A DNA stretch of 15,370 nucleotides, taken from IMG/VR virus record IMGVR_UViG_2751185972_000002. One strand, 5' to 3'. Below are positions 1-15,370 of the stretch, one piece after another. The stretch is from a virus (taxonomy: Duplodnaviria; Heunggongvirae; Uroviricota; Caudoviricetes). Position 1 is the first letter of the stretch. Each line of letters starts with the position of its first letter. The translations under genes were made by a program, and so were the position numbers. The notes below the pieces were generated by a model that was given only the letters and a program-made list of their open reading frames with translations, had not been told where the DNA came from and did no database searches.

Positions 1-705
1 AAGACCGCACGAATATAACGGTGGGTTCCCCCCAAACGAATCGGAAAATCGATACTGGAAAAACTCTAACTCGGTGGCCAGTTTTTGTTGACCACTTCAA
101 ACCGCAAAAAAGCGAACGTCATGCGCCCGGTGGAGTACCAGAACGGCGAAGCATTCACTATCCGTAACGTACAGGTTATGCCTGAATCCATTCCGGCTGG
201 CTTTAAGGCACTGGCTGACATGAGTCCGTTTGAATCCCTGCTGATTGTGGATTTGGGCGGAACCACGCTGGATGTGGCAAAGGTTCAGGGGCAACTGGCA
301 GGTATCAGCCAGGTGTTTTGCGATCCACACGTGGGCGTTTCTCTGATGGCCGATGCCGTACTGTCGGTGATGGCCACTAACGGTATGCGCACCAGTCACC
401 ACATCGCCAATACCATTATCGAACATCGCCATGATGAAGCCTGGCTGCGCCAGCACATCCACAATGACGCGCATTACGCCAGCCTGATGGCGGTAATTCG
501 TGAAAAGGAAGAAACACTGAAACAACGCGTGATCCGCGCGCTGGCGGTTTTTTCGGGTTACGGGCGGGTGATGGTTGTCGGTGGAGGGGCGGAGATTGTG
601 GCACCCGCTATCCGCGAAGCCTGCGGAGTTAATGCGACTTTCATCGCGGACGGGGTGCCACAGTTTGCTCTGGTTAATGGGCTGTACGCAATGGACAAGG
701 AGTAA
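1..705 (+). pseudogene. parM: ParM/StbA-like actin-type segregation ATPase; 5' end off-window and reading frame disrupted near 82-90
   Basis: ORF 85..705 (206 aa) aligns, by recall, with the C-terminal ~185 residues of plasmid R1 ParM (RKKAN, FTIxxVxVMPESIPAG, LIVDLGGTTLD, VMVVGGGAE). The same frame has stops at 16-18 and 67-69. Frame +2 is open from the window start to a TGA at 89-91 and reads ...FPPNESEN..., resembling the ParM segment just upstream. This implies a 1-nt indel around the T5 run 82-86. Confidence 0.55.
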
Positions 706-709
706 ACCA

Positions 710-1021
710 ATGACGACTCCAACCAGACGGATAAGTTTCTATCTGAAGCCCACCGCCGTCAAGAACGAAGGAGAAGCATGCGCCTGGCTGGACAGCCTTA
801 CACCAGAAGCCCGCAAAAGCGGCCAACGCGTGGCTTTTCTGGCCGGGCTGGCACTTCTGAAAATGAATCCGGCAGAGGCTTATCGACTGGCTGCATGGGC
901 TGGTGATGAAGCGTTATCAGTGACACAAACCAGGACAGAACGCCCCGCATCACAGCCAGTATCAACCGCACAGATAACCAGTCAGATGGCCGGAAATATC
1001 CGGGCGTTATTTCCTGAATAA
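710..1021 (+). CDS. parR: ParR-like ribbon-helix-helix DNA-binding protein (partition adaptor-like), 103 aa
   Basis: RBS AAGGAG 8 nt upstream of ATG 710, 4 nt after the parM-like stop. N-terminal residues RRISFYLKP...AWLDSLTPEARKSGQRVAFLAGLAL resemble R1 ParR (RRTIAFKLNP...CDTLDSIPQGERS...AALTAGLAL) by recall. Position directly downstream of parM matches parMR operon order. The track ORF 575..1021 is an upstream extension overlapping parM. Confidence 0.6.
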   Translation: MTTPTRRISFYLKPTAVKNEGEACAWLDSLTPEARKSGQRVAFLAGLALLKMNPAEAYRLAAWAGDEALSVTQTRTERPASQPVSTAQITSQMAGNIRALFPE

Positions 1022-1029
1022 CACAACAT

Positions 1030-1047
1030 CAGGGCGAGTTCGCCCTG
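1030..1047. repeat. GC-rich palindrome CAGGGCGA-gt-TCGCCCTG (hairpin) 38 bp upstream of ORF 1085
   Basis: Arms 1030-1037 and 1040-1047 are perfect reverse complements. The same arm sequence recurs at 1688-1713. No T-tract follows. Confidence 0.6.
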
Positions 1048-1084
1048 CTCTCCACCTCAGAACATAAACAAGGAGAACGACTTA

Positions 1085-1675
1085 ATGAGCGAAATCAACT
1101 ATCAGGCATTACGTGAACGTTATTCACCTGTGCCAGTACCGAAATGCCCTATTTGCGGCGAGGAAATGTCAATTCAGCGAATATCTGGAGCACAGGTTGT
1201 TTATGCCTGCTCCGGTTATGGTGATGATGGAGATTTCAAAATTGGCCGAACTCTTGCTGACGAACATTATGAAAAATCACGCGTAACAGTGTTGGATGTC
1301 GGGGATCCTGAAGTATTGGCGCTACTTGATTGGCTGGAAACCAAAGACAACCGAATCGCTGAACTGGAAAAAATCGCCACTGACTATGCACTTAAATTCC
1401 AGAAAGCACAGGACGCATTAAAGCATGCCGCTTTGCTGCATAGCAGGACGGCGCAACAAACAAATAATTTTGCAGTATCGCTTCCGGACATAAGCGAATA
1501 TTTCATTAATGACGTATTTCAGCCCTTGCGATACGAGCGGGATGTTGAAAGAGCCATCATAAAGGCTGGCGGAAAAGCATTGTGGCAGGAGAAACACGAG
1601 GACAGAACGCATCAGTCATGCGATGTAAATTGTGGATGGTTTAGCCCACTGACGACAGATAAAAATAACACCTGA
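1085..1675 (+). CDS. hypothetical protein, 196 aa; N-terminal CPICG Cys motif plus predicted coiled coil; possible ead/Ea22-like relative
   Basis: Strong RBS AAGGAG 7 nt upstream of ATG 1085; clean 196-codon ORF. Visibly more AT-rich than neighbours. N-terminus (xINYQALRE) and LALLDWLE coiled-coil segment recall the ead/Ea22-like family of lambdoid prophages; this assignment is tentative and unsearched. Confidence 0.65.
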   Translation: MSEINYQALRERYSPVPVPKCPICGEEMSIQRISGAQVVYACSGYGDDGDFKIGRTLADEHYEKSRVTVLDVGDPEVLALLDWLETKDNRIAELEKIATDYALKFQKAQDALKHAALLHSRTAQQTNNFAVSLPDISEYFINDVFQPLRYERDVERAIIKAGGKALWQEKHEDRTHQSCDVNCGWFSPLTTDKNNT

Positions 1676-1687
1676 TCCCCCTCAAAC

Positions 1688-1713
1688 CAGGGCGATAATC
1701 GCACATCGCCCTG
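1688..1713. repeat. GC-rich palindrome CAGGGCGAT-(8 nt)-ATCGCCCTG 13 bp downstream of ORF 1085..1675
   Basis: Arms 1688-1696 and 1705-1713 are perfect reverse complements and share the CAGGGCGA/TCGCCCTG core with the hairpin at 1030-1047. Possible terminator or cassette boundary; no T-tract follows. Confidence 0.6.
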
Positions 1714-1714
1714 C

Positions 1715-1741
1715 TGCACAATAGTGCACAAATTTGCACAA
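1715..1741. repeat. Three direct TGCACAA heptamers spaced exactly 10 bp apart (1715, 1725, 1735); a fourth copy at 1807-1813
   Basis: Read directly: TGCACAAtagTGCACAAattTGCACAAttttttt. Helical-phase spacing suggests a protein-binding array (operator, iteron or centromere-like). Confidence 0.55.
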
Positions 1742-2112
1742 TTTTTTTGAACGAATTTTTGCCCTTCCAGCCCGCGTGGCGGCTGGATCCGTCAAGGATC
1801 CGTGCGTGCACAAAAAAACGCGCTTTTTCTGCGCGCAGGTGACGGGGGAACAGCCCGCGTTTCAGGGGGTAAATAGCGTTCCCTTAACGATGTCGCAGCG
1901 ACACGACAGAATGGCCGTATTTCTCACGCTGAGCGTGAAAAATACGTGAGGGATTCTGATTTGATGGGGTGAAAGGTAAGGCCGTCAAAATCGCACTGAG
2001 GCGGCGAGAACATGCAGTCAACGCGGTGGGATTGCGTAAGAGTCTGACCGTCGATGGTGGCGATAAACTGGAAGGCGTCGTGAAATTATCTGACTGATAC
2101 AGGAGCTGGAGA

Positions 2113-2141
2113 GTCGGGGCATAAATTTTTTATGCCCCGGC
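2113..2141. repeat. Perfect 11-bp inverted repeat CGGGGCATAAA-ttt-TTTATGCCCCG between convergent accessory genes and Q
   Basis: Arms 2115-2125 and 2129-2139 are exact reverse complements. Lies about 25 bp beyond the Q stop. May be a bidirectional terminator-like hairpin, but no flanking U-tract on either strand. Confidence 0.45.
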
Positions 2142-2165
2142 GAAGCAGCAGACAAGCGAAGCGCG

Positions 2166-3212
2166 TCAGGATGTGGGCTGGATGTCTAACAGTGCGTAAG
2201 GGTTAAAGCGGATCACCTCTTCGCCAAGCCAGTCATTGATGTGCTTCATGGCCTCCATGACGGGCATCAGCTCGTTAATTGCGTAAACCCGCGCGGCCTT
2301 CTCCACATCACCAAACGCACTTTTTTCACCCGGCATCGCCCCCATCAGTTGCGGCGGAACGCGGTGCGCAGCCAGCACATCATCACGGGATGCCGCCTTA
2401 ACATTCATGAACTCATCCTTTGCGGTGATCTGCTGGAACGGCAAAATTTGCACCCCCTCTTTGCCCCCGTTGGGCGCATGAATGAGCACGTTTTTAAACG
2501 CACCACCACCACGCGCACCCTGTAGCGTTTCTTTCAGGGAGTCCATGCTTTCGCGGTTTACCTGCGCGGCACCGATGTAGATGATGCACCCGGCGTGGGA
2601 TCCGTTGTCGTAATACAGTTTTCTGAACATGTCCGCCGAATGAGACAGGCTGGCCGAGAGTAATGCGCCGAGATATTCCGGCATGCCGTAGATTTCCTGG
2701 TTAATGTCAGGATTCATCAGGTGACACACTTTGCCTGGGCGAAACTGAAACGCATCCTTGCCATCCTGCACATACCTCCATGATTCAAGATCGCTTCCGC
2801 GTCGCATGTATTTCGCCAGGGCGTGCCGTAATTTAAGCGGTTCGCCGAGCATATTGCTTCGAAGCTCAAGGAATGCGTTACCGAACACAAACCAGTCCAG
2901 CGCCAGCGCCGAGAAATCCTGCCGGGAAAGCAGCGGGTGCGGGATGTAGCAACCGAGCAATACATTGCGCTTAAAATAAAGCGCAGACTGATGCCAGGAC
3001 GTTTGCCGGGCAGCTCTTGCCAGACCGTACCAGTCCACCGGGGTTTCATACCACCGCCCGTTATCAGCACAGTACATATTGTCCAGCAGGTCATGCCCGG
3101 TCAGGCGATAAGGACCATCAAATGTGAATGCACTGAGCGATGATTCTTTCCTGAGCGCATCAGCGAGATCAATGCGTGAACTCATGCGCACTTTTTTATT
3201 TTTTCTGCTCAT
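2166..3212 (-). CDS. Q: portal protein (P2 gpQ-like), 348 aa
   Basis: Length matches P2 Q (344 aa by recall). Immediately downstream of, and overlapping by 1 nt (TGATG), the terminase gene, as in the P2 P-Q operon. RBS GGAG 7 nt upstream of ATG at 3212. Confidence 0.88.
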   Translation of the reverse strand: MSRKNKKVRMSSRIDLADALRKESSLSAFTFDGPYRLTGHDLLDNMYCADNGRWYETPVDWYGLARAARQTSWHQSALYFKRNVLLGCYIPHPLLSRQDFSALALDWFVFGNAFLELRSNMLGEPLKLRHALAKYMRRGSDLESWRYVQDGKDAFQFRPGKVCHLMNPDINQEIYGMPEYLGALLSASLSHSADMFRKLYYDNGSHAGCIIYIGAAQVNRESMDSLKETLQGARGGGAFKNVLIHAPNGGKEGVQILPFQQITAKDEFMNVKAASRDDVLAAHRVPPQLMGAMPGEKSAFGDVEKAARVYAINELMPVMEAMKHINDWLGEEVIRFNPYALLDIQPTS

Positions 3213-4963
3213 CAGAACTCCATAACCGTGAAACGCTCGTTTTCTCCTTCGCCGCCAATCGGTTCGTTAATGACAGCAAGCATGGTTGCCCACGCAAGGT
3301 CGCCGTGGCTGATCCCCCTCGCTCGGTCCGTTTCGTAAGTGATAAAGCCGCCCGGTGTTTTCACCTTACGCACGGCGTTAAAGGCCGCGACCAGCTCGCG
3401 TTCGGCGCGATCGTATTCCCACCGCCCGGCACGCATTATTTGCAGCATTTTCAGTACCAGCGACCGTTTTGATGACAGCGTGAAGGTGTACGGAATAGCG
3501 GCAGGGAAAAACCGTTTCACTATCTGATAAACAGCCTCCCCGTTCCCGCCCGTCACATCAATGCCGATGTGTTCCACGTTGTAGCGACACGTGAACTCTT
3601 CAATGACTCTGGCCTGTTCTTCAAACTCCAGCCCCTGAACGCGTCGCGTCTCCACCGTTCGAAAACGGCCACCAGGAACAGACGGAGGAACCACCACGGA
3701 CACAGCGCCGCTGTCGCCGTTGCCACTGCTGCCGTTTGCGTCATACCCAATCCATACCGGACGATTCCCCATCGGGCGGGGAGCAAAAGGTTTCCAGTCT
3801 TTCCAGTCGTCGTATCCGTCAACGCCGCAGCCAATCAGGATATTCAGGTTAAATGCCGATTCCCCTTCGCGGACAAACTCACACATATAGAGATTGAGGA
3901 ACTCGTCTTCGGTGTTTTCATCACGAATTTCGTCGATATCGGTGTGTTTCCAGCCGTGATTAACCACATCTTCCAGCGTGACAATTTGCCGCCACGTCCG
4001 GTCAGGGCAGATAAGCCCGTTATGCAGCGTTTTCCAGTCCACAGAAAAACGCTGGCGTTTATGCGAGGCCTTTTTCTCGTTCCAGCGGTCGCCGTTCCAG
4101 TAGGCGTATGCCTCGTGCGTTTCGGTGGATGGCGTGGAGAAGTAGGTGCGCCGCAGTCCGCTGAGGGTTGCCATAGCGCCAGCCACCTTGCGCAGTTCAG
4201 CAAAGCGACTGACCCAGAAAAATTCATCAAAATAAAAATTGCCCGTATAGGACTGTGCCGACGCAGCAGAAGTGCCGAGAAAATGCAGCTCTGCGCCGTT
4301 GGAGAGGATGATTTTATCGCCCCCTTTCAGCTCCACATCAACTTCAGCCGCGGCCTTCTGAATAATGCTTTTAAACTGGAACGCCTGACGACGCGACGCA
4401 GACAAAAAAATCTGGTTACGCTGGTAAGGTTGCGCCACATCGTCACGCAGCGCCATCAGCAGTGCTTCCTGTGCAAAATACCAGGTCGCCCCAATCTGTC
4501 GGGATTTCAGGATCATCCTGTTACGTATCCCGGCTTCCCTGCAAAGGGTCAGGGAGTCAAACCAGCCCCGCTGATGCCACTCCAGCCTGCTGATGATTTT
4601 TTCCCGCAGTGCGGCAATCTGTTCCGGCGTGAAATGATTTTTGAGTTTTTTCGCCCGGCCTTTCTTTCCTGCGGCCATCACATCCGGCTGGCCATCATGC
4701 AGCTTTTTAAGCTGCCGGGTCAGCAGGTCTATTTCCTTAAAGTCACCGCCTGTTTTATTCTGTTTTTCAGTAAGCTGGATGAGGCGCGCATCGATGGACT
4801 GCGTGACACGCTGCCCGGGTGGCGTTTCATCCCACTGGTCACGTTTTTTCCACGCATAAATCGTGTTCGGGTTTATTCCCATCAGACGTGATATTTCTGC
4901 GGGCGGATAACCCTGCCAGTAAAGTTGCCGCGCACGCTGGCGCACAAAAGCGTCCTGAATCAT
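3212..4963 (-). CDS. P: terminase large (ATPase) subunit (P2 gpP-like), 583 aa
   Basis: 583 aa vs P2 P 590 aa. N-terminal helix-turn-helix-like segment (YWQGYPPAEISRLMGINPNTIYAWKKR) typical of P2-family terminase ATPase. RBS GGGGGAG 5 nt upstream of ATG at 4963. Divergent from O as in P2. Confidence 0.9.
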   Translation of the reverse strand: MIQDAFVRQRARQLYWQGYPPAEISRLMGINPNTIYAWKKRDQWDETPPGQRVTQSIDARLIQLTEKQNKTGGDFKEIDLLTRQLKKLHDGQPDVMAAGKKGRAKKLKNHFTPEQIAALREKIISRLEWHQRGWFDSLTLCREAGIRNRMILKSRQIGATWYFAQEALLMALRDDVAQPYQRNQIFLSASRRQAFQFKSIIQKAAAEVDVELKGGDKIILSNGAELHFLGTSAASAQSYTGNFYFDEFFWVSRFAELRKVAGAMATLSGLRRTYFSTPSTETHEAYAYWNGDRWNEKKASHKRQRFSVDWKTLHNGLICPDRTWRQIVTLEDVVNHGWKHTDIDEIRDENTEDEFLNLYMCEFVREGESAFNLNILIGCGVDGYDDWKDWKPFAPRPMGNRPVWIGYDANGSSGNGDSGAVSVVVPPSVPGGRFRTVETRRVQGLEFEEQARVIEEFTCRYNVEHIGIDVTGGNGEAVYQIVKRFFPAAIPYTFTLSSKRSLVLKMLQIMRAGRWEYDRAERELVAAFNAVRKVKTPGGFITYETDRARGISHGDLAWATMLAVINEPIGGEGENERFTVMEF

Positions 4964-5117
4964 TGCTCCCCCTGAGTAATTACAGGAAGATTACCCGCGC
5001 GCGAAACTGTTCTCCTTAACCCTCTGTTCTGGCCGTTTTCTTACAACAAAAGCCCTTTGTATCAGCCTGTTACGCTTTGCCATCATGACTGAAGAACCAG
5101 TCAGAGGGGCAAAAACT
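4964..5117. promoter_or_regulatory. Divergent late promoter region between P and O (expected Ogr-type activator-dependent promoters)
   Basis: 154-bp gap between divergently transcribed P and O. In P2 this gap carries the late promoters activated by Ogr; that is established knowledge, not read from this sequence. The only symmetric element I see is an imperfect dyad ACAAA-agccc-TTTGT at 5046-5060. No clear sigma70 -35/-10, consistent with activator dependence. Confidence 0.35.
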
Positions 5118-5954
5118 ATGGCTAATGAAAAAAAGACATCCCGCAAAAAGTTTCGCGTGGCTGTCTCCGGATCAACTGTTGATGGCCGTGAAATCAGTCC
5201 GGTGCATCTGCGTGAAGCCGCCGAGAACTTCAACCCGGATGTTTACGCTGCCCGCGTGAACGTTGAGCACTATCTCTCGCCATGCCCGTCAAGCGAATTT
5301 TCCGCAATGGGCGATGTCACCGCACTGAGTACGGAAGAGATTACGGAAGGTCCGCTGGCCGGACGTACTGCGCTGTATGCAGAAATCGAACCGACCGAGC
5401 GCATGAAGCAGCTTGTTGCGGACGGCAAGAAAATCTATTCCAGTATCGAACTGCACCCGCAGTTCTCCGTTAACGGGCGCGCCTATCTGGTCGGGCTGGC
5501 GATGACCGACACCCCGGCAAGCCTGGGCACTGAGCGCCTGAAATTCACGGCACAGCAACGTCAGGCGGTGATGACGTTTAACAGTATCCAGGGTGAAGCG
5601 CCGCTTATCTCCGAAGCCATCGAGTCTGAAATCATCGAAATGGCAGAACAACGCCAGGAAGAAGGCACCCAGTGGTTTAACCGCGTAATGGGGATTATTG
5701 GCCGTGGCCGCAAAGCGGATGACGCCAGTTTTTCCCGTATTCAGGAAGCGGTGGAAGGCGTCGCAACGTCACAGGCCGACATTATCGACCGTTTTAATGT
5801 GCTGGAAACCCGCCATCAGCAGGACCGCCAGAAAATTACGTCACTGACCACAGAGCTGGCAGCACTGAAGGAAAAACTGCGCACGCAGGACGGCGATCCG
5901 CAGAACCGCTTCACCGCAACGGGCGCAGCCTCCGACCAGCTGGCCGACTTCTGA
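5118..5954 (+). CDS. O: capsid scaffolding protein (P2 gpO-like), 278 aa
   Basis: Start set to ATG 5118 (MANEKK...; RBS AGAGGGG upstream) rather than the track start 5085. Sequence KKFRVAVSGSTVDGREIS...YLVGLAMTDTPASLGTE parallels P2 gpO (FFRIGVEGDTCDGRVIS...YLVGLAVTDDPASLGTE, recall). P2 O is 284 aa. Confidence 0.88.
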   Translation: MANEKKTSRKKFRVAVSGSTVDGREISPVHLREAAENFNPDVYAARVNVEHYLSPCPSSEFSAMGDVTALSTEEITEGPLAGRTALYAEIEPTERMKQLVADGKKIYSSIELHPQFSVNGRAYLVGLAMTDTPASLGTERLKFTAQQRQAVMTFNSIQGEAPLISEAIESEIIEMAEQRQEEGTQWFNRVMGIIGRGRKADDASFSRIQEAVEGVATSQADIIDRFNVLETRHQQDRQKITSLTTELAALKEKLRTQDGDPQNRFTATGAASDQLADF

Positions 5955-13375: not shown

Positions 13376-15043
13376 ATGAGTACCACAACACGAAAATTTA
13401 AAACCATTATCACCGATACGGGTGCAAAAAAATTAGCTCAGGTAGCCGCGCCAGATGGTAAGCCTGTCCGCCTGACTCATATGGCCGTGGGCGACGGTGG
13501 CGGCACGTTGCCCACACCAGACAGTAAGCAGACCCGTCTGGTGCATGAGGTGTGGCGACATACTGTTAATCGCGTCATCCTGGACGCAACACATCAGAAC
13601 CGCATTATTGCGGAGCTGGTTATTCCTCCTGAAACGGGCGGATTCTGGATCCGGGAAATTGGTGTATTTGATGAGCACGGCGATTTAATCGCGGTGGGAA
13701 ATACTGCCGAAAGTTACAAGCCAGCCGTTGCCGAAGGGTCCGGTCGTGCACAAACATTTCGCACCATTCTGACCGTATCCAGCACTGCCACCGTGGCGCT
13801 TACCGTGGACAACACCATGGTGATGGCCACAGTGGATTACGTGGATGACAAACTGAAAGAGCATGAACAGTCACGACGTCACCCGGACGCCTCGCTGACC
13901 GCAAAAGGCTTTGTTCAACTCAGTAGCGCCACTAACAGCGTGTCTGAAACGCAGGCTGCAACACCGAAAGCAGTAAAGGCCGCGTATGATCTTGCTAACG
14001 GTAAATATACTGCGCAGGATGCCAGCACGACGCGAAAAGGCCTTGTCCAGCTCAGTAGCGCCACCAACAGCACGTCTGAAACGCAGGCTGCAACGCCGAA
14101 AGCAGTAAAGGCCGCGTATGACCTTGCTAACGCAAAATATACCGCTCAGGACGCCACGACGGCACAAAAAGGGATAGTCCAGCTCAGTAGTGCCACCAAC
14201 AGCACGTCTGAAACACTGGCCGCGACATCGAAAGCGGTTAAGGCGGTAATGGATGAAACGAACAAGAAAGCGCCCTTAAACAGTCCTGCGCTGACCGGAA
14301 CGCCAACAACGCCAGCTGCGCGACAGGGAACGAATAATACCCAAATCGCAAGCACGGCTTTCGTTATGGCTGCGATTGCCGCCCTTGTAGATTCGTCACC
14401 TGACGCACTGAATACGCTGAACGAGTTAGCGGCGGCGCTGGGAAACGCCCCGAATTTTGCGACCACCATGACTAACGCGCTTGCGGGTAAGCAACCGAAA
14501 GATGCCACCCTGACGGCGCTGGCCGGGCTTGCTACTGCGGCAGACAGGTTTCCGTATTTTACGGGGAATGATGTCGCCAGCCTGGCAACCCTGACAAAAG
14601 TCGGGCGGGATATTCTTGCGAAATCGACCGTTGCTGCCGTTATCGAATACCTCGGTTTACAGGAAACGGTAAACAGGGCTGGTAACGCCGTGCAAAAAAA
14701 TGGCGATACCTTGTCCGGTGGGCTTACTTTTGAAAATGACTCAATCCTTGCCTGGATTCGAAATACTGACTGGGCGAAGATTGGATTTAAAAATGATGCC
14801 GATGGTGACACTGATTCATACATGTGGTTTGAAACAGGCGACAACGGCAATGAATATTTCAAATGGAGAAGCCGCCAGAGCACCACAACAAAAGACCTGA
14901 TGACGCTGAAATGGGATGCACTAAATATTCTTGTTAATGCTGTCATTAATGGCAGTCTTGGAGTTGGTTCGACGAATGCGTTAGGTGGTAGCTCTGAACC
15001 GCCCCGGGAATCCTGGAGACTAAACTTCCTGAGAAAGAGGTAA
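13376..15043 (+). CDS. H: tail fiber protein (P2 gpH-like), 3' end replaced by an IS insertion; last 16 codons are IS-derived
   Basis: Near-identity by recall to P2 gpH over N-terminal and central regions ([58 protein letters not shown]..., [15 protein letters not shown]). Homology ends at about aa 540 of the 669 expected for P2 H, where the IS left end begins at 14995. The ORF then reads through the IS terminus to TAA 15041-15043. Confidence 0.85.
13904..14250 (+). repeat. In-frame 132-bp (44-aa) tandem repeat within the tail fiber gene, about 2.6 copies
   Basis: Units start at 13904, 14036 and 14168, exact 132-nt period, encoding [45 protein letters not shown]. The third copy diverges after KAVKAV. 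Typical phage tail-fibre repeat. Confidence 0.8.
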
Positions 15044-15370
15044 ACAGGATGACTAAAAATACTCGTTTTTCCCCCGAAGTCCGTCAGAGGGCGATTCGTA
15101 TGGTTCTGGAAAGTCAGGGCGAATATGACTCACAGTGGGCGGCAATTTGTTCCATTGCCCCAAAGATTGGCTGTACACCGGAGACTCTGCGTGTCTGGGT
15201 ACGCCAGCATGAGCGGGATACCGGAGGCGGTGATGGCGGGCTCACCACCGCTGAACGTCAGCGTCTGAAAGAGCTGGAACGTGAAAATTGTGAACTGCGC
15301 CGCAGTAACGATATCCTTCGCCAGGCTTCCGCTTATTTTGCGAAGGCGGAGTTCGACCGCCTCTGGAAAA
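14995..15370 (+). mobile_element. IS3-family insertion sequence (IS629/IS1203-like), left end; continues beyond the window
   Basis: Terminus begins TGAACCGCCCCGGG (IS3-family TGA... end) at 14995, exactly where P2 H homology stops. OrfA starts 54 nt inside. OrfA sequence matches IS629-group transposase OrfA by recall. Confidence 0.8.
15049..15370 (+). CDS. IS3-family transposase OrfA (helix-turn-helix / leucine-zipper subunit), 3' end cut by the window edge
   Basis: RBS AAGAGG upstream of ATG 15049. [107 protein letters not shown] matches IS629/IS1203 OrfA (recall). The window ends in the A-run where the IS3-family -1 frameshift site is expected. Confidence 0.88.

Follow-up and report, generated by a model that had tools for sequence, protein, structure and literature searches.

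The cos-proximal hotspot of P2-like phages

The gpA-gpQ locus of P2-like phages, which lies near cos, is a hotspot of genetic diversity and of anti-phage systems, and is the counterpart of old/tin in P2 (Rousset et al., 2022; PMC9122126). A 2026 preprint on P2 hotspots describes the mechanism of cargo swapping as still unsettled. Ea22, an accessory protein of lambda and Stx phages, is pro-lysogenic, tetrameric and mosaic; a short N-terminus and a coiled-coil region precede a C-terminal domain that varies (PMC10834534, PMC7093339). Both systems bear on the DNA considered here, a stretch of 15,370 nucleotides from IMG/VR virus record IMGVR_UViG_2751185972_000002 (the window, meaning the whole stretch that was analysed). 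Positions 1022-1714 of the window are one allele of the hypervariable hotspot between gpA/parM-stbB and gpQ, filled by a single Ead/Ea22-like gene. The allele has a GC-rich hairpin at either edge, H1 on the left and H2 on the right, and the two have their arms in common. Among relatives the two hairpins occur independently of each other. We favor the reading, at a probability of about 0.62, that they are separate edge elements of the known hotspot, serving as 3' stem-loops or insulators, and that cargo is exchanged through the flanks.

The window is a P88-like prophage (Xuanwuvirus, Peduoviridae, P2-like). Phage P884B11 matches positions 100-1759 with 99.9% identity, and the flanks are 94-97% identical to those of P88, Chuche, Shae_phiSM, PhiR44_2, 520873 and 503458. 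The genes of the window follow the order parM (cut), a stbB/parR-like gene, the Ea22-like open reading frame (ORF), ~450 nt of non-coding DNA, portal and large terminase; in intact relatives the order is replication endonuclease gene, parM, stbB, cargo and portal. As in the hotspot of Rousset et al. (2022), the variable part lies between the replication endonuclease and portal genes, beside cos, and unrelated gene sets interchange there, anti-phage systems included. The differences are that P88-like phages have parM-stbB between gpA and the variable part, and that the cargo here is Ea22-like, with no known role in defence.

We surveyed 93 P88-like loci (12 from GenBank/RefSeq, 80 from IMG/VR, and the window), and the slot could be delimited in 82, which are not independent samples, many of them being near-identical prophages. 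Across the 93 loci the slot is 537-3715 bp long, is represented by 65 distinct sequences, and holds at least 26 types of cargo on either strand. The alternatives to the Ea22-like gene include IetA/IetS, an AbiL-like ATPase with TOPRIM, an RmrA-like peptidase with a PIN-type partner, PDC-M04A, a Fic/Doc-type pair, DUF4760-like membrane proteins, and ClpX-zinc-finger proteins. PADLOC matched IetA (E = 4e-89), AbiLi, RmrA and PDC-M04A among these cargos and gave no match for the Ea22-like ORF. The alignment of related prophages that the sequence-only reading of this DNA had proposed shows the segment replaced by unrelated genes; it is a horizontally exchanged cargo.

The edges of the slot are sharp. 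On the left, stbB is the final conserved gene, and several relatives lose homology at its stop codon (1021-1024). The left homology of six phage genomes to the window ends at 1016-1024 or at 1073, and further ends among the relatives fall at about 1047-1050. On the right, almost all the relatives examined regain homology at 1714/1715, at a conserved box (1715-1745, plus strand; TGCACAAtagTGCACAAatTTGCACAA) that is the first backbone sequence beyond the hotspot. In Chuche it resumes at 1669, via a degenerate H2. The box has three TGCACAA repeats, which form an invariant right edge in almost every relative examined.

The sequence-only reading had called the segment moron-like. A moron, in the concept of Hendrix and Juhala, is a promoter-gene-terminator unit inserted between backbone genes. 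The deviant base composition that the reading had noted is borne out: the ORF has a GC content of 45.2% against 55.0% for parM-stbB and 55.1% for the window, and it falls in the lowest 0.3% of 591-nt segments. Like the morons of lambdoid phages, the Ea22-like gene is an accessory gene of deviant composition between backbone genes, with a stem-loop after it. There are differences as well. A simple consensus scan of positions 1-5200 found no sigma-70-like promoter (3.7 expected in shuffles), although weak promoters could escape it. H2 is a stable stem-loop lacking the T-run of a terminator, a weak hairpin followed by seven T residues being found instead in the backbone at 1724-1749. The backbone neighbours are never adjacent in relatives, 537 bp being the shortest slot. 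A pattern scan of IMG/VR for an empty slot matched only a locus with a type-8 cargo, and synthetic junction queries against 5,426 E. coli genomes gave no contiguous junction. A search of genome contigs for more distant stbB loci yielded just three near-identical ones. Since the slot is occupied in every relative, the locus is better described as a fixed hotspot whose content is replaced than as a textbook moron insertion.

Independent assortment of H1 and H2

H1 (1030-1047, plus strand; CAGGGCGAGTTCGCCCTG) has a 7-bp stem, CAGGGCG/CGCCCTG, and a 4-nt loop. Its RNA is predicted to fold into the same 7-bp stem with an AGUU loop, at -13.0 kcal/mol (z = -3.75); an eighth, A-T pair would leave a loop of just 2 nt. 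H2 (1688-1713, plus strand; CAGGGCGATaatcgcacATCGCCCTG) has a 9-bp stem, CAGGGCGAT/ATCGCCCTG, with an 8-nt loop, and folds at -15.6 kcal/mol (z = -3.89). The two hairpins and their common arms, CAGGGCGA/TCGCCCTG, are as the sequence-only reading had described them. They lie 37 nt upstream (1048-1084) and 12 nt downstream (1676-1687) of the ORF, close to the 38 and 13 bp given there. In addition, a 10-nt direct repeat, TCGCCCTGCT, is found at 1040-1049 and again at 1706-1715.

Matching palindromes at both borders had been taken to delimit a discrete cassette, and this part of the reading fails when the relatives are compared. H1 is present in 66 of the 82 delimited loci and H2 in 30. Both are found in 24 loci, H1 without H2 in 42, H2 without H1 in 6, and neither in 10, so that H2 occurs at much the same frequency with H1 (36%) and without it (38%). 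When distinct cargo types are considered, all four combinations are likewise seen. Because the presence of one hairpin is independent of that of the other, H1 and H2 are not a matched pair.

The independence also bears on the proposal of a discrete mobile cassette, of a moron-like or integron attC kind, that consists of the Ea22-like gene and has the palindromes as its recombination-site borders. The palindromes do sit at the edges of a segment that is truly exchanged among relatives, they have 8-nt arms and the 10-nt direct repeat in common, and several relatives diverge immediately past the 3' arm of H1. The unsettled swap mechanism of P2 hotspots also leaves room for such a proposal. However, the fourfold table already largely refutes it. 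H1 stays in place with many other cargos, H2 occurs without H1, and most cargos end in unrelated terminators. The gene and its hairpins were seen only in this slot of P88-like prophages, no terminal inverted repeats lie between the direct repeats, and no recombinase gene lies beside the slot. Sharp edges are predicted equally well by selection on stbB and on the cos-proximal box. We consider a cassette with palindromic borders highly improbable.

Three more specific candidates for a mobile or dispersed element were rejected. An integron-type cassette does not fit, as the hairpins do not travel with the cargos and no integrase- or recombinase-like ORF is adjacent to the slot. A transposon or miniature inverted-repeat transposable element delimited by TCGCCCTGCT fails in that the 656 bp between the repeats has no terminal inverted repeats. 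The third, a dispersed palindrome of the repetitive extragenic palindrome (REP) or bacterial interspersed mosaic element type, had been suggested in the sequence-only reading, along with a search of host genomes for further copies. Of 5,426 complete E. coli genomes, 175 carry the 40-nt H2 region, at a median of one place and a maximum of two per genome, and never on plasmids; the viral contigs that match the palindrome are unrelated. The REP suggestion is not upheld, the palindrome being a one-copy element in each genome.

H1 as a backbone element and H2 as one of several 3' hairpins

H1 begins 8 nt past the stop codon of stbB, a distance that is fixed among the relatives, and its stem is all but invariant. 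Unrelated sequences, at least six of them, begin 0-3 nt past its 3' arm: an Ea22 leader, a ClpX-zinc-finger leader, two ends of minus-strand cargos, an IetAS cargo and an RmrA-like cargo. Because the stem is invariant at a fixed distance from stbB while unrelated sequences follow it, H1 is an element of the backbone. In a terminator scan it was terminator-like on the minus strand only, where ATGTTGTGTT / AUGUUGUGUUAUU comes next. In the type-8 cargos, a minus-strand gene has H1 immediately downstream of it.

The loop of H1 varies, with six variants among the relatives: AGTT, AACT, CATC, TATC, TATT and AAAC. They correlate with the upstream stbB allele and the downstream leader. When considered as markers of recombination inside the hairpin, they behaved as lineage markers, with no clear breakpoint signal. 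TATT, TATC and CATC form a chain of single-step changes. The AACT loop of locus L200 (L084/L200) is the exact reverse complement of the AGTT loop of the window (1037-1040), on an identical stem; the pair is suggestive of a template-switch event that inverted the hairpin loop. The reverse-complementary loops, the hypervariability of the loop, and the divergence right past the 3' arm of H1 are all compatible with another proposal, in which the invariant stems are hairpin or cruciform landing pads in single-stranded rolling-circle replication, where they would promote template switching or illegitimate recombination. Such landing pads would help to explain the rapid swapping of cargo in P2-like hotspots, but we give them only a very slight chance of being real.

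H2 adjoins the TGCACAA box in each of its 30 occurrences. It mostly lies 3' of a shared C-terminal Ea22 module, and is also seen where other genes precede Ea22 and H1 is missing (L007, L170, L192, L193). In three loci (L109, L171, L174) it follows an unrelated gene for a 132-aa helix-turn-helix protein. Canonical terminators, each a stem with a T-run, occupy the position of H2 in P88 (AAACGCCCtcttccaGGGCGTTTATTT), PhiR44_2 (AAAGCGCCtcaggGGCGCTTTTTGT) and 520873 (AAGCGCCgataaGGCGCTTTTTTTGT). H2 is one of several alternative 3' hairpins that abut the conserved TGCACAA-repeat box. Within and just beyond the box lies a weak conserved hairpin (1724-1749, plus strand; GTGCAcaaattTGCAC then AATTTTTTTG), which the terminator scan matched on the plus strand, at 1724-1739. 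It has a T7 tail, folds jointly with H2, and is kept in the relatives.

Some further features of this edge may be recorded. The box may be part of the packaging (cos) region. In L109, ~82 bp is missing between two copies of GTGCACAAA (the equivalent of window positions 1733-1814), as if deleted through recombination between the repeats; L171 and L174 probably share the loss, as judged from their matching H2 variant. On the minus strand, a terminator-like site at 1671-1691 (CCTGGTTTGAGGGGGATCAGG then TGTTATTTTT) takes in the stop codon of the ORF and the first bases of H2, and may be due to chance or may be a stop for leftward transcription coming from the cos side.

Proposed role of the hairpins

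On the favored reading, H1 would be a backbone stem-loop that closes the parM-stbB unit, and H2 an interchangeable 3' hairpin that ends the last rightward cargo gene just before the TGCACAA box. Their function is most likely at the level of the transcript, given that the hairpins are stable and lie 8-12 nt past stop codons, and that sister phages have real terminators at the same site. As 3' stem-loops, both would attenuate transcription and/or stand in the way of 3' exonucleases. H1 would separate the RNA of the par operon from that of the cargo. On the opposite strand, where AUGUUGUGUUAUU is next, it may keep leftward transcripts from running antisense through the par and replication genes. 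H2, with the weak hairpin and its U7 at 1724-1749, would end rightward transcription ahead of cos. Transcription of the Ea22-like gene probably comes by read-through from the par operon, since no sigma-70-like promoter was detected in positions 1-5200; in this copy the operon is cut by IS911. Cargo would be swapped through homologous recombination in the conserved flanks and not at the hairpins, and the edges of the slot would be sharp since selection maintains stbB and the cos-proximal box.

The closest functional parallels are the 3' stabilising stem-loops and the intrinsic terminators. The hairpins resemble both in being stable, GC-rich and placed 8-12 nt after stop codons, and in having canonical terminators at the same site in sister phages. 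They differ from intrinsic terminators in having no U-tract on the coding strand. A canonical intrinsic terminator was rejected on this ground: the stems are there but the plus-strand U-tract is not, and the scan is passed by H1 alone, on the minus strand. The lack of a plus-strand U-tract also makes an attenuator or 3'-protective stem-loop preferable to an efficient terminator. The REP-type barriers to mRNA decay offer a functional analogy only, the present hairpins being single in each genome rather than members of a dispersed family. A search of Rfam with positions 900-2250 gave nothing relevant, and the edge hairpins are not mentioned in Rousset et al. (2022; PMC9122126) or in the 2026 preprint.

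Several observations weigh against a role as transcript stem-loops. The U-tract is lacking after H1 (CUCUCCAC; tail CTCTCCAC) and after H2 (CUGCACAA; tail CTGCACAA) alike. Neither stem shows compensatory (double) substitutions. Direct structural evidence is weak, the structure being drawn from thermodynamics and conservation. The loop of H1 is far more divergent than the surrounding backbone, and a purely structural role does not explain why the stem is invariant or why H1 and H2 have identical arms. The changes seen in the stems are of five kinds, all single, and two of them yield G-U pairs in the plus-strand RNA only.

The invariant stem, the lack of compensatory changes and the presence of the same half-site at both positions would be accounted for if the palindromes were DNA operator sites of a dimeric phage or host protein, such as StbB/ParR or a repressor. 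However, the 8-mer half-sites are 2 nt apart in H1 and 10 nt apart in H2, a difference that a dimeric binder would not normally tolerate, and two stem variants keep their pairing only as G-U in RNA. Type II partition centromeres, moreover, lie upstream of parM and consist of iterated repeats. We regard operators as quite improbable.

Why the two stems match

A role of the hairpins as transcript stem-loops would leave aside the question of why their stems match. A search of both strands of the window found five copies of CAGGGCGA where 0.66 would be expected, a number reached by 2 of 200 shuffles, and four of the five are hairpin arms. Perfect hairpins whose stem reaches 7 bp or more number 12 in the window, giving 66 possible pairs, and of these only H1 and H2 have a 7-mer arm in common. 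The chance probability of the match is 0.01-0.05, by a rough and post hoc estimate.

It is possible, though it would not be our first expectation, that the match is a coincidence between generic GC-rich stems of the terminator type. The bare palindrome, with a spacer of 2-12 nt, is found in at least 120 unrelated viral contigs with no flanks in common. Most of these matches fall within GC-rich coding DNA or are ordinary terminators, and their number is at about the chance level for 16 specified bases. P88's own terminator has related arms, AACGCCCT/AGGGCGTT, and the match was, after all, noticed post hoc. Against coincidence, the single pair in 66 that shares a 7-mer is precisely this adjacent one, with the low chance estimate just given, and the stem of H1 is invariant while its loop and both flanks change.

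Common descent concerns the origin of the hairpins and is compatible with their functioning as stem-loops. On this account, H1 and H2 both derive from one ancestral hairpin that lay between the stbB stop codon and the TGCACAA box. Entry of cargo downstream of the hairpin would have left H1, entry upstream would have left H2, and recombination between the two lineages would have given loci with both. The stem core is identical and the identity extends 2 nt further into the right flank, to give TCGCCCTGCT at both sites; all four combinations of presence and absence exist. The type-8 cargos even have, directly after H1, a sequence (ATGCACAAAACATGCAAAAT) that resembles the box sequence CTGCACAATAGTGCACAAAT. 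The resemblance, however, is only about 15 of 20 nt, the loops differ in sequence and in length (4 against 8 nt), and the left flanks differ. Furthermore, neither IMG/VR nor the 5,426 E. coli genomes yielded a genome in which the slot is empty and stbB, hairpin and box adjoin. We hold descent from one hairpin to be rather unlikely. That the stems match on account of a shared binding factor or a role in recombination is of low probability, given the unequal half-site spacing and the independent assortment of H1 and H2.

The Ea22-like gene

The cargo allele of the window is an Ead/Ea22-like gene of 196 aa (1085-1675, plus strand; Pfam PF13935, Ead_Ea22). The Pfam match has E = 2.1e-32 over residues 2-140, with 113 bits against a gathering cut-off of 27, and RefSeq labels identical copies 'ead/Ea22-like family protein', and the tentative Ea22 assignment of the sequence-only reading is upheld. 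Two other features named there are also present: a ribosome-binding site, AGGAG (1071-1075, plus strand), read directly 9 nt 5' of the ATG, and a CxxC motif, C21-x2-C24 (CPIC). The 63-nt leader contains only H1 and the ribosome-binding site. As far as 1073 it is common to P88 and PhiR44_2, although a different gene comes next there. The full cassette was found in 129 E. coli genomes; the gene occurs unchanged in over a hundred E. coli genomes and in phage P884B11.

The alleles of the slot have MSEINYQALRE and a RIAELEKIATDYALKFQ segment in common, and vary in their middle or C-terminal modules. In this they resemble Ea22 of lambda and Stx phages, with which they share a short conserved N-terminus, a central helical region, a variable C-terminal part, and mosaic alleles. 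They differ from it in location, the gene here belonging to a P2-like phage and lying near cos rather than in the lambdoid exo-xis region, and the protein of the window has in addition an inserted segment that contains the CxxC motif. A sequence search of PDB with the ORF gave no match to solved structures; for its C-terminal part this includes the C-terminal domain of lambda Ea22. Some relatives carry two tandem Ea22-like genes with unlike middle modules (L009, 2564-3645). In others (L010 and L012, 2564-2935) the Ea22 gene is truncated after ~124 codons, its 3' part being replaced by a different minus-strand cargo, and is listed as a pseudogene in RefSeq. These tandem and truncated genes indicate that recombination happens within the Ea22 gene as well.

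The finding is an ordinary one, in that the Ea22-like gene was already annotated and the hotspot, already known in P2-like phages to shuffle accessory and anti-phage genes, has been described in the literature. The edge hairpins are a minor detail of the hotspot in the P88-like subgroup, apparently undescribed. If they set transcript boundaries, they would govern the expression, in lysogens, of promoter-less cargo from the par operon. Its place in a defence hotspot makes the Ea22-like gene a reasonable candidate for superinfection exclusion or the control of lysogeny.

Neighbouring genes and other features of the window

On the left, positions 1-99 are an end of IS911 (no strand assigned), 99% identical to the IS911 annotated in phages Sf6 and SfII. 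It truncates parM, and the alignment of all P88-like relatives begins only at window position 89-100. What remains of parM, which encodes an actin-like plasmid segregation ATPase, is the 3' part (100-705, plus strand; Pfam ParM_N, E = 2e-69; StbA_N, E = 8e-15); the gene is annotated at its full length of 960 bp in relatives. Because IS911 cuts parM at 99/100, this copy lacks the par promoter that would lie upstream of the Ea22-like gene. The stbB/parR-like partition gene follows (710-1021, plus strand; Pfam Plasmid_stab_B, E = 3e-23; PHROG 2515, partition protein, E = 2e-57). Two stbB loci nearly identical to the P88-like ones, L214 and L216, are filed under assemblies of Vagococcus sp. and Fredinandcohnia humi. 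L216 is a 229-bp contig with coverage below 1, and both look like contamination with enterobacterial DNA rather than records of true hosts.

At the other end of the window, an IS3-family element that starts with TGAACCGCCCCGGG at about position 14995 interrupts the tail-fibre gene (13376-15043) at its 3' end. Insertion sequences thus bound the prophage segment at both ends (1-99 and 14995-15370), and since they cut parM and the tail-fibre gene, this copy is a degraded prophage remnant. The C-terminal part of the tail-fibre gene (14550-14994; Phage_fiber_2 and Gp34_trimer domains) is a second AT-rich stretch, with 44-48% GC, a composition that mosaic receptor-binding ends typically show.

On its right the hotspot is anchored by the portal gene gpQ (2166-3212, minus strand; PHROG 68, portal protein, E = 2e-151; Pfam Phage_portal). 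In the 450-nt non-coding stretch before it lies an inverted repeat (1916-1946; CGTATTTCTCACGCT/AGCGTGAAAAATACG) that is 93% complementary. A perfect 11-bp palindrome (2115-2139, no strand assigned; CGGGGCATAAA/TTTATGCCCCG) is located 26 nt downstream of the portal stop codon and probably ends the late Q-P transcript, acting in both directions.

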